From the NCBI GenBank assembly GCA_030426465.1, contig JAUHYK010000008.1, forward strand, positions 4,756 to 68,755: DNA of 64,000 nucleotides. The letters are read 5' to 3'. This DNA comes from Alphaproteobacteria bacterium (GTDB lineage: Bacteria > Pseudomonadota > Alphaproteobacteria > Caulobacterales > Parvularculaceae). The stretch's first letter is position 1. Every line of letters begins with the position of its first letter. Position numbers and translations under genes: made by a program. Shown here piece after piece: positions 53,240 to 58,541 of this stretch. Below the pieces are notes generated by a model. The model worked only from the letters and a program-made list of their open reading frames with translations, was not told the origin of the DNA and did not search any database.

Positions 53240-54400
53240 TCAAGCGAAGAGTTCGTAAAGCACGCGGTTCAAAATCCGCCGGCCATCGCCTGTGGCCGCG
53301 AGGGTTTCTCCGTCCCAGGTCAGGAGATTATCGCCGATGAGCCGGTCGATGCGTTCATAGGCGCCGGCGCCTGTGGCGGCGTCAGTGAAGAACGGGTCCG
53401 TTTCGTGTAACGCGATGCCCTTGCGAAGCCGCAACCCCATTGTGAAGCGCTCCATGGTCGCCTCACTCTTGCTCAGGATCGTCTGCGTGTGCGGCGCCCC
53501 GGCGAGATAGTCTTTCGGCGCCAGCGGCGTTTCGGTGGCGATGCGGTGACTGTCTTCCGCCAGTCCTCCATGGGCGTGGTTTTTAGTTAGGCGCCCGTGG
53601 GCGCCGGGACCGACGCCCACATAGTCGCCATAGGTCCAGTAAACGAGATTGTGTCGGCTCTCCTCGCCCGGCCCGGCGTGATTGGAGATTTCATAAGCGG
53701 GAAGCCCCGCCGCCGCCGTCATCTCCTGCGCGGCGTCATACATGTCTGCTGTGATGTCATCCTCAGGCGGCGTCCAGCGGCCTTTATCGACAGCGATGGC
53801 GAAGGCCGTTCCCGGTTCAATGGTGAGCTGGTAGAGCGAAAGATGCTGCGGCGCGAGGGTTAGCGCTTCGCCGAGTTCTATGCGCCAGTCGTCTAGCGTC
53901 TGGCCGGGGCGGCCATAGATCAGATCGAAGGTGACACGGGGGAAGGCGGCTTTCGCAGCTTCAATCGCACGCTTGGCGGAGGCTGCGTCATGGTCGCGGC
54001 CGAGAAAGTTGAGCGCCTCATCGCGCAAGCTTTGCACGCCCAAGGACAAACGGTTGACGCCTGTCCTGGCGAACGCTTCGAAACGCGACTGCTCGGCGTC
54101 CGTCGGGTTGGCTTCAAGGGTGATTTCGGCGTCCGGCTCAAACCCCCAAAGGCGTGCGCAAGTTTCGATGACGCTTTCGATGACCGGTAGCGGCGCGAGC
54201 GACGGCGTCCCGCCGCCAAAATAGAGGCTTGTCAGTTTCCGGCCTTGCGTTCGCGCCGCGTAATGGTCGAGGTCACGCGTCAGCGCCCTGATCCAGGCGT
54301 CCACGTCCACGTCGCGGTTTTTGTAGACGTTGAAATCGCAATAGGGGCAGATGCGCGCGCAATAGGGCCAATGAATATAAACGCCTAATTTCGTTGTCAT
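53240..54400 (-). CDS. hemW: Radical SAM heme chaperone
   Basis: YIHWPYCARICPYCDFN, FGGGTPS, EANP, YEISN, HNLVYW. Confidence 0.95.
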   Translation of the reverse strand: MTTKLGVYIHWPYCARICPYCDFNVYKNRDVDVDAWIRALTRDLDHYAARTQGRKLTSLYFGGGTPSLAPLPVIESVIETCARLWGFEPDAEITLEANPTDAEQSRFEAFARTGVNRLSLGVQSLRDEALNFLGRDHDAASAKRAIEAAKAAFPRVTFDLIYGRPGQTLDDWRIELGEALTLAPQHLSLYQLTIEPGTAFAIAVDKGRWTPPEDDITADMYDAAQEMTAAAGLPAYEISNHAGPGEESRHNLVYWTYGDYVGVGPGAHGRLTKNHAHGGLAEDSHRIATETPLAPKDYLAGAPHTQTILSKSEATMERFTMGLRLRKGIALHETDPFFTDAATGAGAYERIDRLIGDNLLTWDGETLAATGDGRRILNRVLYELFA

Positions 54401-54410
54401 CGGGGCTTTG

Positions 54411-55190
54411 TCACTGGGCGGCGGCGGCCTGTTCCGCAAGCTCGATTGTGTGGTCAAGGAGCTCCCGTCCGCCCATGGGCCCGTGAGACGGGATGACAAT
54501 CTCTGCTTCCGGAAAAGCCTCAGCAACATTCCTGACGGCTTCAGCCCAGTGGCTTACATCGCCATCAGCCGTGTTGCCGAGATTTTTGGATTCGCCGGGC
54601 CGAATGAGGCATCCGCCAAACAGCACTTTCGCCGGTGCGTAATAGACGACGATATTGTCGCGTGTGTGGCCAGCGCCGGGGTAATAAATTTCGTAATGAT
54701 GGTTCTGCGAGTGGGTGGTAATGACTAGCTGCGTCGCCCCTTCCTCCAACGCCAGGCTTTTTTTTGCAGGGCTCAGACCGCGCGCAGGCGCATCTTCGTT
54801 GGAAAACTGGTGCGCGATGGTTTCTACGCCATGAGCATGAAGCGCGCTCATGCCGCCCATCTTGTCGCTATGCGCGTGCGTAACGATGGCTGTCGAAGGC
54901 AGGCCGCCAGTTTCCGATTCGACTAGATTGAGTAGCGCTTCCGTTTCTTCGTCGGTCCATGCGGTGTCTACAAGAATGACACCCTTATCTGTTTGCACAA
55001 CAAGTCCCTGCGACAGGACAAGCCCCCAGCCGCTGACATAATCATAGCTCTTGTGAATCCAGACATTGTCGGCGATTTTTTCCAGCGACGGCGCGGGCAG
55101 CGCTTCGGCGGTTTGGGGCGTTTCTTTATTGGTCGCGCAAGCGGCCAGAGAAACGAGCGCAAGAGCGGCGAGAAAACTTCTAAACATCAA
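54411..55190 (-). CDS. Subclass B1 metallo-beta-lactamase, NDM-like lipoprotein
   Basis: [41 protein letters not shown] give all six B1 zinc ligands; lipobox LAAC. Confidence 0.9.
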
Positions 55191-55795
55191 AAATGCGCTT
55201 TCATCAGTTTACGGAATGCATCCGCGCGGTGGGAGATGTCGTGTTTTTCGTCCGGCTCCATTTCCGCAAAGGTGACGTGATAGCCATTCGGGACGAAGAT
55301 CGGATCATAGCCGAAGCCTTTCTCCCCGCGCGCCGGAAAACAAAGAACGCCTTTGACATCGCCTTCAAAAATTTCCGTGTGCCCGTCTGGCCAGGCGAGG
55401 CAGAGGGCGCAGACAAATTTCGCCGAAAAGTCCTCCGTGCCGCTGTCAAAGAGCGCGGATTCCACCTTTTTCATCGCGGCGTCGAAATCCCGGGGCTCGC
55501 CCGCCCAGCGGGCCGAAAATATCCCGGGTGCGCCGGAGAGCGCCGTTACGGCGAGGCCACTGTCATCGGCCAGCGCCGGCAGGTTTGCGGCCTTCGCGGC
55601 GGCAAGCGCCTTCAATTGGGCGTTCTCAGCGAAGGTCGTTCCGGTCTCTTCAGGGTCTTCAAGGCCAAGTTTTTTTGCGGAGATCGCCTCAATGCCGAGC
55701 GGGGCAAGTAATTCATTGATTTCTTTTACTTTTCCATCGTTGTGAGAAGCGATGACGAGGCGTCCGGGCCCTAATTTCCGCACATTCTCGCCCAT
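55187..55795 (-). CDS. rdgB: dITP/XTP pyrophosphatase (HAM1)
   Basis: [40 protein letters not shown] 55795 (the ORF-track 5' extension is spurious). Confidence 0.96.
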
Positions 55796-55820
55796 GTTTT
55801 TATCCCTTATCGAAAAAAAA

Positions 55821-55863
55821 TTATCGTTTTTCGGCAAAAACCACTTGCATTGTTTTTCGATAA
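55821..55863. promoter_or_regulatory. Two TTATCG-T5-CGATAA-type boxes (55821-55837, 55847-55863) plus half-sites at 55807 and 55872
   Basis: TTATCG-TTTTT-CGGCAA and GCATTG-TTTTT-CGATAA; same consensus as 33795-33811. Confidence 0.65.
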
Positions 55864-55872
55864 GTCTATATC
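55845..55872 (+). promoter_or_regulatory. sigma70-type promoter of the leader-micropeptide-DUF2975-HTH unit
   Basis: TTGCAT-N16-TATATC. Confidence 0.55.
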
Positions 55873-55878
55873 GATAAT

Positions 55879-56163
55879 CAACAAGACGGTGATCAACGCC
55901 GCAAGCACAGGACCCCGGGCTCGGAGAAATACCAGACCCTGGGTGAAAAGAAAAAGGCCGAAAAGACCGGGCGAACCGGCGAAAAGAGCCAAAAAGGAGA
56001 AACCCGGGGAAAGGTCGGCCCCGCCCGAGAAAAAGGGAAAACCGGCCAAACAACAGGGCCCGAAAGGCCCAAATAGCAGCCCGAAAAAAAAGAGCGGCGG
56101 AAAAACCGCCGCTCAAGAAGATCAAAAACGAGCCGCTAACACAGGAAAGAAAAGGAGAAACCC
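55879..56163 (+). ncRNA. Candidate structured, almost U-free leader RNA or ncRNA
   Basis: 11 T and ~117 A in 285 nt; at least five GC stems with A-rich or GAAA-type loops; 14-nt direct repeat AAAAGGAGAAACCC at 55992 and 56150. Confidence 0.6.
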
Positions 56164-56298
56164 ATGCGCTTTGCTAACTCAAACTCAAGTTTCGATAAAT
56201 TTGGCTACTTTGTCAATGGACTGGCCGTATTCCTGACCATTTCTGTCATCGCCGCCGGCTATGTCTCGGCGATCGGCTCCTTCGCTGGGGTGGCGTAA
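56164..56298 (+). CDS. 44-aa single-TM micropeptide [44 protein letters not shown] (not in ORF track)
   Basis: AAGGAG SD, in-frame stop upstream at 56137, TAATG coupling to the next ORF. Confidence 0.7.
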
Positions 56299-56453
56299 TG
56301 TCCAAACTTTTCCACAGAACGGCGGCGGCGGTGTTCGCCGCCTTCGCGGCGGCGAGCCTTTACTCCCTCGCCGTCGCCTCGCCCGCCGAGAGCGGGGCTG
56401 ACGACGCCCGGCAAAGCTGCGAAAAAGCCTTCTGCCTGATCGCCCTGTTCTAG
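56298..56453 (+). CDS. 51-aa secreted micropeptide [51 protein letters not shown] (not in ORF track)
   Basis: TAATG overlap; Sec-type signal peptide; C-terminal CxxxxC. Confidence 0.65.
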   Translation: MSKLFHRTAAAVFAAFAAASLYSLAVASPAESGADDARQSCEKAFCLIALF

Positions 56454-57248: not shown

Positions 57249-58541
57249 CTATTGATACGGCGCCGCGGCGGGGTCGCTGGTCGCTTCTTCCGGAACGTCC
57301 TCCGCATGGGGCGCGATCGCTGCGCCGACCTTCCGGCTTCTCCAGACAAAAACAAGCAAGAATATCGCGAGCGTGGTCGACAGGATGAACGGCGCCTGCG
57401 GCGTGTGGGCGTAAAGCCAGAAAGCAATGGCCGGCGAGACGATAAAGCCCGACGCTGTCGCTGCGCCGGCAAGGCCAATGGCGCCGCCCTGTTCATCAGG
57501 CTCGACAGCAAGGGAGGCGGCGGCGGTCACTGCGGGGAACGCCATGCCCGATCCGAGACCGCTCGCCACCATGCCGAGAACCACGGGCCAGAGGTGATCG
57601 GACAGAAGGATTGTCAAATGGCCAGCAATCATCAGCGCCGGGGCGATGCGCATGAGCCGCGCCGGGGAAAGACGCAGACGCTGCACGATCACGAGCTGCG
57701 CAAAGAGCGAGGCCATGGCGCCGGCGGTCAGCCCGATGCTGACATACGCGGGCGCCTCGACGGTTGAATAGCCGAGCCGGTCGATAAAATAAAACGCGAT
57801 AGTCTGGATCGGAATGGCGTTGATGACGGAGAAAGTCAGCGCCGTGATGAGGAAGGCTGTCAGGCGTTCATCACCGAGCTTGACGCGTTTTCCATGCTTG
57901 CGCTGTGTCGGCCCGGTGCGTTCCGGAAGGAAGGCGAACACCGCGAGCATCATCACGAAGCCCAGCGCCGAGGCGGCGAAAAACGGAACGATGCGCCCAA
58001 GAAGCGACGCCGCCGCGCCGAAGCCGGGGCCGAGCATGGCGCCGAAGCCGAACGCTGCAGAAAATCCGGCGATGCCCGCGGTGCGGTCATGCTTTGAGGT
58101 GCGGTCGGCGATATAGGCTTGCGCGGCCGGGGGCCCCGCGGAGCCGACAAGGCCGTAAATGCTGCGCGTCGCCACCAGAAGCAGATAAAGCGGCAGGCCG
58201 GAAAAAGCGCCCGCGAGCCCGAGCATGATGGAGCCGCCGAAAAGCGACATGGACACCGCATAGCCGATCATGCCGACCAGGATAAACGGCTTGCGGCCTC
58301 GCTGGTCGCTCATCCGCCCCCAGATCGGTCCGGTGAAGACCCAGGCGGTGGCCGAGACAGCGAAGATCGCGCCGACCTGAAAATTCGACAGGCCGATTTC
58401 CCGCGCCAGCGGCGGCAGAACTGAAAAGACAATGGTCTGGCCCATGCCGGCGCAGACGGCGCCCACCAAGAGGAGCGCGATGGCGATCCTGCGTTGTGTG
58501 GCGGTGGTCGCGCTCGCGGCCGGCGGCGCTGATGAAGTCAT
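57249..58541 (-). CDS. MFS transporter (DHA1/TetA-like)
   Basis: WGRMSDQRGRK motif A; 12 hydrophobic segments. Confidence 0.92.
   Translation of the reverse strand: MTSSAPPAASATTATQRRIAIALLLVGAVCAGMGQTIVFSVLPPLAREIGLSNFQVGAIFAVSATAWVFTGPIWGRMSDQRGRKPFILVGMIGYAVSMSLFGGSIMLGLAGAFSGLPLYLLLVATRSIYGLVGSAGPPAAQAYIADRTSKHDRTAGIAGFSAAFGFGAMLGPGFGAAASLLGRIVPFFAASALGFVMMLAVFAFLPERTGPTQRKHGKRVKLGDERLTAFLITALTFSVINAIPIQTIAFYFIDRLGYSTVEAPAYVSIGLTAGAMASLFAQLVIVQRLRLSPARLMRIAPALMIAGHLTILLSDHLWPVVLGMVASGLGSGMAFPAVTAAASLAVEPDEQGGAIGLAGAATASGFIVSPAIAFWLYAHTPQAPFILSTTLAIFLLVFVWRSRKVGAAIAPHAEDVPEEATSDPAAAPYQ

Follow-up and report, generated by a model that had tools for sequence, protein, structure and literature searches.

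A 64,000-nucleotide window (the whole stretch of DNA analysed here, from contig JAUHYK010000008.1 of a Parvularculaceae genome) encodes, on its reverse strand, a subclass B1 metallo-beta-lactamase (MBL) whose gene lies between rdgB and hemW. We consider it probable that the protein is a functional di-zinc B1 enzyme and that its gene is a chromosomal resident of a marine Hyphococcus-group alphaproteobacterium of the family Parvularculaceae. The closest database proteins, found in Hyphococcus luteus, Hyphococcus sp. and metagenome-assembled genomes (MAGs) of Parvularculaceae, are 72-73% identical, and NCBI already labels them "subclass B1 metallo-beta-lactamase". Judged by protein identity, the enzyme is new, since no sequence in the databases searched exceeds 73% identity to it, and it belongs to an already annotated, so far uncharacterised Parvularculaceae lineage. 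Our literature search found no paper connecting Hyphococcus with metallo-beta-lactamases, and the papers that name both "Parvularcula" and "metallo-beta-lactamases" concern no such enzyme.

The protein scores 245.5 bits against the NCBIfam equivalog model for subclass B1 (NF033088; cut-off 200, E = 4e-73), with a match that covers profile positions 8-217 of 217. The models for individual allele families all stay well under their own cut-offs (score/cut-off: FIM NF000437, the top-scoring of them, 196.5/590; NDM NF000259 180.3/580; DIM/SIM/IMP 179/288; AFM 173/590), and Pfam reports the general Lactamase_B domain only. The best sequence matches in the PDB, with E values from 1e-55 to 1e-50, are, in order, FIM-1 (6V3Q, E = 2e-55), the Erythrobacter litoralis enzyme (6V72, 6V3U), an NDM-1 chimera with the L3 loop of IMP-1, the Hirschia baltica enzyme (6V54), and all NDM variants.

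The metal-binding site is complete. Specifically, in a reference alignment of the query with NDM-1, AFM-1, VIM-2, IMP-1 and KHM-1, whose sequences were taken from annotated plasmid records, residues H104, H106, D108, H174, C193 and H235 occupy invariant columns and map to NDM-1 residues H120, H122, D124, H189, C208 and H250, which are positions 116, 118, 120, 196, 221 and 263 of the class B beta-lactamase (BBL) numbering. Both the Zn1 set (H104, H106, H174) and the Zn2 set (D108, C193, H235) are present in full, all six codons were confirmed in the raw DNA, and across an alignment of 65 sequences conservation of the ligand columns is complete or no lower than 90%. Residue N205 (BBL 233) is likewise invariant in the reference alignment, and the L3 loop of the query carries a tryptophan. 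An earlier reading of the DNA made without database searches (the sequence-only reading) had named subclass B1, a full set of zinc ligands and motif blocks in common with NDM-1, and these claims are borne out: profile, fold and phylogeny place the query within B1, and each quoted motif was found and aligned to NDM-1. It had also singled out an arginine that replaces the substrate-binding lysine after the CLI motif. The arginine is indeed there (R196, aligned to NDM-1 K211, BBL 224), but it is no peculiarity of this protein, being present in 105 of 115 scorable clade members and in about half of the scorable 50%-cluster representatives (66 with Arg and 59 with Lys, among 134). Among the reference enzymes, FIM-1 has arginine at this position, and NDM-1, AFM-1, the E. 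litoralis enzyme, IMP-1 and KHM-1 have lysine. Arginine at BBL 224 is as common as lysine in environmental B1 enzymes.

The predicted fold, of the alpha-beta/beta-alpha MBL type, agrees with this assignment. An AlphaFold2 model built on the 65-sequence alignment has a mean predicted local distance difference test score (pLDDT) of 93.7 and a predicted template modelling score (pTM) of 0.87, and its lower-confidence parts are only the signal peptide and linker (pLDDT 75-84) and a loop at about residues 150-170 (pLDDT 69-83). A Foldseek search of the PDB with this model returned exclusively B1 enzymes as top matches, with a probability of 1.00. In particular, the template modelling (TM) score relative to the target is 0.94 for the H. 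baltica MBL (root-mean-square deviation (rmsd) 1.8 Å), 0.91 for FIM-1, 0.91 for the E. litoralis MBL, 0.84-0.91 for NDM variants, and 0.92-0.95 for TMB-1, GIM-1 and IMP-1; rmsd values to the H. baltica, FIM-1, E. litoralis and NDM structures range from 1.8 to 2.9 Å.

By analogy with characterised relatives, which are only 41-46% identical, we infer a zinc-dependent hydrolysis of beta-lactams, including carbapenems. Penicillins, cephalosporins and carbapenems would be hydrolysed in the periplasm by a zinc-bridged hydroxide, as by the 43-46% identical enzymes FIM-1 and ElBla2 (the E. litoralis MBL), with R196 and N205 holding the carboxylate and the carbonyl of the substrate. Expression of ElBla2 in Escherichia coli BL21 gives higher minimum inhibitory concentrations (MICs) of ampicillin, ceftazidime, ertapenem and imipenem, and the enzyme hydrolyses meropenem (PMC5770381). 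Two points limit this view: the AlphaFold2 model contains no metals, and the kcat/Km of ElBla2 is modest, so that high carbapenemase activity of the query is not to be assumed.

The N-terminus of the protein resembles that of a lipoprotein. A basic n-region (R3) is followed by an 11-residue hydrophobic core and the lipobox L14-A15-A16-C17 with alanine at +2, which fits the pattern [LVI][ASTVI][GAS]C within the first ~35 residues; the AlphaFold2 model has a helix at residues 2-15 and a polar linker of ~17 residues (pLDDT 75-84) between Cys17 and the first strand. Lipidation is a reasonable prediction from these features. The precursor would be exported by Sec, diacylated on Cys17 by Lgt, cut by signal peptidase II (Lsp) and anchored in a membrane, probably the inner leaflet of the outer membrane, as suggested by the alanine at +2 and by the behaviour of NDM-1. 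Among 109 homologues with complete N-termini, 44 have a strict lipobox and 85 have a cysteine in the signal region, giving roughly 40-78% of the clade, by strictness of definition; others, including H. luteus (..FIAASARAAEEP) and Amphiplicatus, have sites of the signal peptidase I type instead. Lipobox-like sites are also found in neighbouring lineages, including the nearest relative of NDM (P0135, VAGC), and published surveys give NDM, AFM, CHM-1 and ZOG-1 as the named B1 enzymes with predicted lipidation (PMC11580949). The lipobox LAAC reported by the sequence-only reading is present by pattern, but neither it nor the predicted lipidation makes an NDM-specific link.

Lipid anchoring is the part of the picture with the strongest competitor, namely a soluble periplasmic enzyme cleaved by signal peptidase I with its lipobox unused, which we regard as unlikely. 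Several observations speak for the soluble form and weigh against the anchored one: about a quarter to half of the clade has no lipobox; the lipobox call itself rests on pattern matching; myxobacterial B1 MBLs with predicted lipoboxes were soluble in E. coli, with the lipobox unused (PMC13616975); the close relatives in H. luteus (AASARAAEEP) and Amphiplicatus have signal peptidase I-type sites and no cysteine; and an Ala-x-Ala-like site (A15-A16-C17-A18) overlaps the lipobox. Set against these are a textbook lipobox (Leu at -3, Ala at -2, Ala at -1, Cys at +1), an h-region of a length typical for signal peptidase II substrates, a low-complexity linker of 15-20 residues after the cysteine, as in NDM-1, and the cysteine at this place in most of the clade. 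We keep the lipoprotein as the preferred form of the enzyme.

The gene is embedded in a compact, conserved locus. The TGA stop of rdgB and the ATG of the MBL gene share one base in the sequence TGATG (5'-TTT TGATG TTT-3'), and 10 nt separate the MBL stop (54411-54413) from the ATG of hemW (54398-54400), after which genes for a DUF2721 protein, a PhyH-like dioxygenase and MoeB follow on the same strand (Table 1). The order rdgB-MBL-hemW recurs in nine other genomes of the family and in 19 of the 20 closest loci of species-representative genomes, which are labelled Hyphococcus, Marinicaulis, Amphiplicatus, Parvularcula and "Caulobacterales" MAG. It was found in none of 60 further, more distant loci, which include those of Kordiimonas, Pontixanthobacter, Arenicella, Pontibacter, Myxococcota and NDM-bearing Acinetobacter. 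Furthermore, in 11 genomes without an MBL gene at this site, rdgB directly adjoins hemW.

A consensus scan found no convincing same-strand terminator at the rdgB/MBL or the MBL/hemW junction, and a strong same-strand terminator-like hairpin lies upstream of rdgB (56114-56092), so that rdgB would be the first gene of the unit. The spacing suggests that rdgB, the MBL gene and hemW are co-transcribed, with translational coupling by termination-reinitiation at TGATG; given this overlap and the 10-nt spacer, the MBL would be made constitutively with the housekeeping genes and not induced. The non-coding DNA upstream of rdgB (55800-56299) is itself conserved, with 94-100% DNA identity to Hyphococcus aureus, above that of the adjacent coding sequence (88-94%). 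The rdgB strand of this stretch is rich in T, with terminator-like hairpins at 56114-56092 and 56070-56056, and in an Rfam scan of this conserved leader no family reaches its gathering score.

Table 1. Features of the MBL gene and its two neighbours in the window (positions count from the first nucleotide of the window).
Feature	Position	Strand	Evidence
CDS, subclass B1 metallo-beta-lactamase (MBL) precursor, 258 aa	54411..55187	(-)	ATG 55185-55187, TGA stop 54411-54413
Predicted signal peptide, residues 1-17, with lipobox L14-A15-A16-C17 (codons 55137-55148) and Ala at +2	55137..55187	(-)	Translation, pattern match
H104-A-H106-S-D108 = BBL H116-x-H118-x-D120 (two Zn1 ligands and one Zn2 ligand)	54864..54878	(-)	Invariant alignment columns; codons CAC, CAT, GAC
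H174 (BBL H196), third Zn1 ligand	54666..54668	(-)	Invariant column; codon checked
C193 (BBL C221, Zn2 ligand) to R196 (BBL 224, carboxylate-binding position; Lys in NDM-1)	54600..54611	(-)	Alignments
H235 (BBL H263), Zn2 ligand	54483..54485	(-)	Invariant column; codon checked
Putative central mosaic tract of the MBL gene (~residues 63-162, HxHxD motif included)	54700..54999	(-)	Identity profile versus H. aureus, AU test
rdgB (XTP/dITP diphosphatase), upstream gene	55187..55795	(-)	TIGR00042 176.6 bits, cut-off 145
hemW (radical SAM haem chaperone), downstream gene	53240..54400	(-)	TIGR00539 279.6 bits, cut-off 205

The open frame at 54411-55190 has 259 codons, the first being TTG at 55190 and the second ATG at 55187, and the public annotation of this same protein (P0001, 258 aa) begins at ATG 55187. 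The genome of origin (4.43 Mb, 151 contigs, 96% complete) contains one gene over the B1 cut-off in a profile search. A 368-aa cytoplasmic MBL-fold protein on another contig of this genome (C11, L002:1204-2310), which scores 79 bits on the B1 model, was rejected as a B1 beta-lactamase: HYHAVR replaces its HxHxD motif, and it has no signal peptide.

The fixed position in a housekeeping operon raises the question of function. A B1-fold hydrolase with a non-beta-lactam physiological substrate, serving a housekeeping or envelope role tied to the rdgB-hemW operon and acting on beta-lactams promiscuously, would account for the translationally coupled place across genera, for the fact that the gene has no regulator of its own, and for purifying selection in bacteria without clinical exposure. 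We judge this improbable, for the entire beta-lactam-binding apparatus is kept (the zinc ligands, N233, the basic residue at 224 and the tryptophan-bearing L3 loop), the protein passes an NCBI equivalog model derived from genuine B1 beta-lactamases, and the characterised enzymes at this distance (FIM-1, ElBla2 and NDM) are all beta-lactamases. Frequent loss, with 48 of 61 family genomes being without the gene, also speaks against an essential housekeeping role. The purifying selection is indicated by dN/dS (the ratio of nonsynonymous to synonymous substitution rates) of 0.15-0.16 in the two unsaturated clade pairs (L008/L009 and L015/L016); it is a property of the clade. Comparisons of the window with its relatives are saturated and leave dS undefined.

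The window belongs to the Hyphococcus/Marinicaulis group of Parvularculaceae, and judged by its flanking genes the closest named species is H. aureus KCTC 62394 (rdgB 94% and hemW 87-90% amino-acid identity). The MBL gene is present in six of eight genomes of the genus, including its own, and in 13 of the 61 family genomes searched. Two of these MBLs coincide with those of named species in the tree (zero branch lengths), that of G034, from the same genus, being H. lacteus P0097 and that of G038 being Amphiplicatus P0113. The distribution fits one old insertion followed by losses: a single entry into the rdgB/hemW junction, in a forebear that only some of the family share, would have been followed by repeated loss of the gene. 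Its patchiness, with at least five presence/absence changes on a tree of rdgB and hemW from 22 genomes, weighs against such a history, and re-acquisition into the same site through homology of the flanks may have contributed.

Other sequences have been placed at or near this junction in related genomes. In a congener without the MBL gene (G016), the rdgB-hemW gap holds an apparently frameshifted insertion sequence (IS) with an rve integrase core domain (L025:2374-3407), which may be the footprint of gene loss or replacement at the junction. An insert of ~1.2 kb lies between the MBL gene and hemW in several Hyphococcus-group genomes (L008:226-1410, L009, also L042 and L047); that of L008 is a 394-aa AAA_16/AAA_22 ATPase gene, and three loci have an AAA-ATPase gene or a size-matched insert at this place. 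The IS in one congener and the ATPase inserts suggest that the rdgB-hemW junction tolerates insertions and is a hot spot. One clade member lies elsewhere (L012, on contig C21 of G007; 60% identity, lipobox IQAC), in a genome whose rdgB-hemW junction (L028) is empty; the gene is intact, its neighbours are a short-chain dehydrogenase/reductase (SDR) gene, a photolyase-like open reading frame and a rhodanese gene, and there is no transposase and no mobile gene within 1.5 kb of it.

The surroundings of the gene in the window are those of an ordinary chromosome. No transposase, integrase or tRNA gene was found within ~10 kb of the MBL gene, and no repeats near it; the ~10 kb around it contain fabI, fabB, fabA, lpxR, rlmN, and genes for a methyltransferase, a major facilitator superfamily (MFS) transporter and a GFA protein. 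The MFS transporter (57249-58541, (-) strand, 2 kb from the MBL gene) has a weak similarity to Tet(A/B/C)-type efflux proteins (87 bits versus a cut-off of 475) and is probably a generic MFS exporter. The GC content is 0.55-0.56 in the MBL gene and 0.54-0.64 locally, MBL identity scales with flank identity (r = 0.75, 231 pairs), and a search of the 72,556 plasmids of PLSDB found no copy of this lineage, the best matches being NDM alleles at 42%. The sequence-only reading had called the gene chromosomal and non-mobilised, with no flanking mobile element, and the clean surroundings, the conserved locus and the lack of a close plasmid copy sustain it. It is highly improbable that the gene arrived recently by horizontal transfer, on a mobile element that merely escapes view: the GC content of the gene is slightly lower than that of hemW (0.62-0.63), the distribution is patchy and the site accepts inserts, as with the IS and the ATPase gene, but the gene holds the same position and orientation in 19 loci of at least four named genera, its divergence scales with that of the flanks, its GC content is inside the local range, repeats, integrase and tRNA genes are missing nearby, and the closest plasmid copy is only 42% identical.

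Long residency is accompanied by signs of exchange within the gene. DNA identity between the window and H. aureus is 88-100% in rdgB and the DNA upstream of it, and 81-86% in hemW and in the two end portions of the MBL gene, whereas window positions 54700-54999 are only 61-65% identical to the H. aureus locus (L039:3001-3753), with indels. At the protein level, identity is 91% for residues 30-62 and 85% for residues 163-255, and the centres (residues 63-162) are far apart. The centre of the H. aureus protein shares 84% identity with that of Hyphococcus sp. DHS20C04 (type IGGRAHPLTNEDAP), and the window centre is closest to that of H. luteus, at only 66% (type VETIAHxFSNEDAP), so that two central allele types exist within the genus. 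In four other species pairs, flank identities of 88-95% go with MBL identities of 85-94%, whereas for the window and H. aureus the values are 91% and 73%. A linear regression of MBL on flank identity fits close pairs poorly, and we therefore used pairwise comparison followed by a segment-wise approximately unbiased (AU) test. For the central segment this test rejected a clade of the window and H. aureus (delta lnL 41.8, p 6.5e-5), and for the N-terminal plus C-terminal segments it did not (p 0.62); the segment borders were picked after viewing the sliding-window profile.

The simplest reading of these data is a recombination tract of ~300 bp within the gene, which would derive from an unsampled allele; internal segments would later have been swapped between alleles by homologous recombination. 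Tentatively, and with more doubt than confidence, we extend this to the locus as a whole: rdgB-MBL-hemW may harbour a mostly lipidated lineage of B1 carbapenemases that sits in a housekeeping operon and diversifies by interspecies exchange of internal segments, with the flanks and the gene ends as recombination substrate. If so, mosaic MBL alleles would be analogous to mosaic penicillin-binding protein genes, and lipid anchoring would be an old native trait of the super-group of NDM and FIM and not a novelty of NDM.

The position of the query among B1 enzymes was examined by pairwise identity and by a maximum-likelihood tree of 76 sequences, comprising the references, the query, sequences of family genomes, named homologues, and 50%-cluster representatives that an exhaustive HMMER search had supplied. 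In BLASTP comparisons, the query is 45.9% identical to FIM-1, 43.0% to the E. litoralis enzyme, 41.4% to NDM-1, 40.9% to AFM-1, 37.8% to VIM-2, 34.7% to IMP-1 and 32.9% to KHM-1. For scale, NDM-1 is 56.9% identical to the E. litoralis enzyme (published as 56% for ElBla2; PMC5770381) and 58% identical to the unnamed representative P0135. The tree places the query inside a Parvularculaceae clade of 27 rows (Shimodaira-Hasegawa-like approximate likelihood-ratio test (SH-aLRT) 97), while NDM-1, AFM-1, 6V72 and P0135 form a separate clade that excludes it (SH-aLRT 100) and FIM-1 forms another with its nearest representative, P0133, at 66.7% identity (SH-aLRT 99). The Parvularculaceae, NDM/AFM and FIM lineages unite only at the level of a super-group whose resolution is poor (SH-aLRT 83). 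The tree thus indicates that the gene is of the same broad B1 branch as NDM and FIM and is neither a member of the NDM family nor its progenitor. Two family genomes, G032 (Parvularculaceae MAG OFTM378; L018/L094) and G030 (L019/L090), have more distant B1 MBLs outside rdgB-hemW, which are 42-47% identical to the query and group loosely with FIM-1 in the tree, L018 being 51% identical to FIM-1.

The label "NDM-like", given by the sequence-only reading, is not upheld, and its description of the gene as an environmental, non-mobilised relative of a clinical carbapenemase stands for the chromosomal, non-mobilised state of the gene, with the relation to NDM-1 and FIM-1 being a distant one (41-46%). 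That the query is an NDM-family member, or a close environmental progenitor of NDM, is hardly credible, and the membership is refuted: motif blocks and a lipobox are held in common with NDM-1 and NDM structures are among the best fold matches, but identity to NDM-1 is below that to FIM-1, the NDM model gives less than its cut-off (180.3 versus 580 bits), the NDM/AFM/E. litoralis/P0135 clade excludes the query, BBL 224 is arginine and not lysine, and ElBla2 (56%) and P0135 (58%) are far closer to NDM-1.

The locus does not reveal the source of any clinical enzyme. To the environmental reservoir of B1 carbapenemases it adds a clearly bounded alphaproteobacterial lineage, in the branch that holds NDM and FIM, and a gene fixed in a housekeeping operon across genera offers a clean case of a long-resident, non-mobilised MBL, with a native host for studies of physiology. 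Predicted lipidation, common in the lineage and its neighbours, also puts the "unique" membrane anchoring of NDM in context.

The nearest known systems are the uncharacterised proteins annotated as "subclass B1 metallo-beta-lactamase" by the Prokaryotic Genome Annotation Pipeline (PGAP) in H. luteus, H. aureus, H. flavus, H. lacteus and Amphiplicatus metriothermophilus, which belong to the same clade (54-73% identity) and have the same rdgB-MBL-hemW locus and the CLIRP motif. With the nearest of them at 72-73%, the query represents a distinct allele or lineage. It differs from the H. luteus and Amphiplicatus enzymes in having the lipobox cysteine and from the H. aureus enzyme in the allele type of its central third. 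Among the B1 MBLs of marine Alphaproteobacteria, ElBla2 of E. litoralis HTCC 2594 (PDB 6V72/6V73) and the H. baltica MBL (PDB 6V54) are 42-43% identical to the query, with TM scores of 0.91-0.94. Like the query, they are chromosomal, have no flanking mobile elements, and occur in only some of the congeners (PMC5770381). Unlike the query, ElBla2 groups with NDM (56.9% to NDM-1) and has lysine at BBL 224, and the loci of Pontixanthobacter, Qipengyuania and Henriciella, among the 60 more distant ones, are without the rdgB-hemW context.

With NDM-1 and AFM-1, the query has in common the B1 fold, the zinc ligands, a lipobox-type signal peptide, lysine at BBL 121 (HAHxDK) and long motif blocks, but it is only 41.4% and 40.9% identical to them, lies in another clade and has arginine in place of lysine at BBL 224. 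Furthermore, it has neither a downstream ble gene nor an ISAba125/Tn125 context, being chromosomal and embedded in an operon. The closest named match is FIM-1 (45.9% identity, TM score 0.91; PDB 6V3Q), an acquired B1 MBL of Pseudomonas aeruginosa, with which the query has in common the arginine at BBL 224, the CLIRP motif and the tryptophan in the L3 loop. The two nevertheless stand apart: the query scores 196.5 against the FIM cut-off of 590 and belongs to another clade, which does not include P0133, the nearest representative of FIM-1. The FIM-1 gene sits on an acquired element, whereas the gene of the query is fixed in a housekeeping operon.

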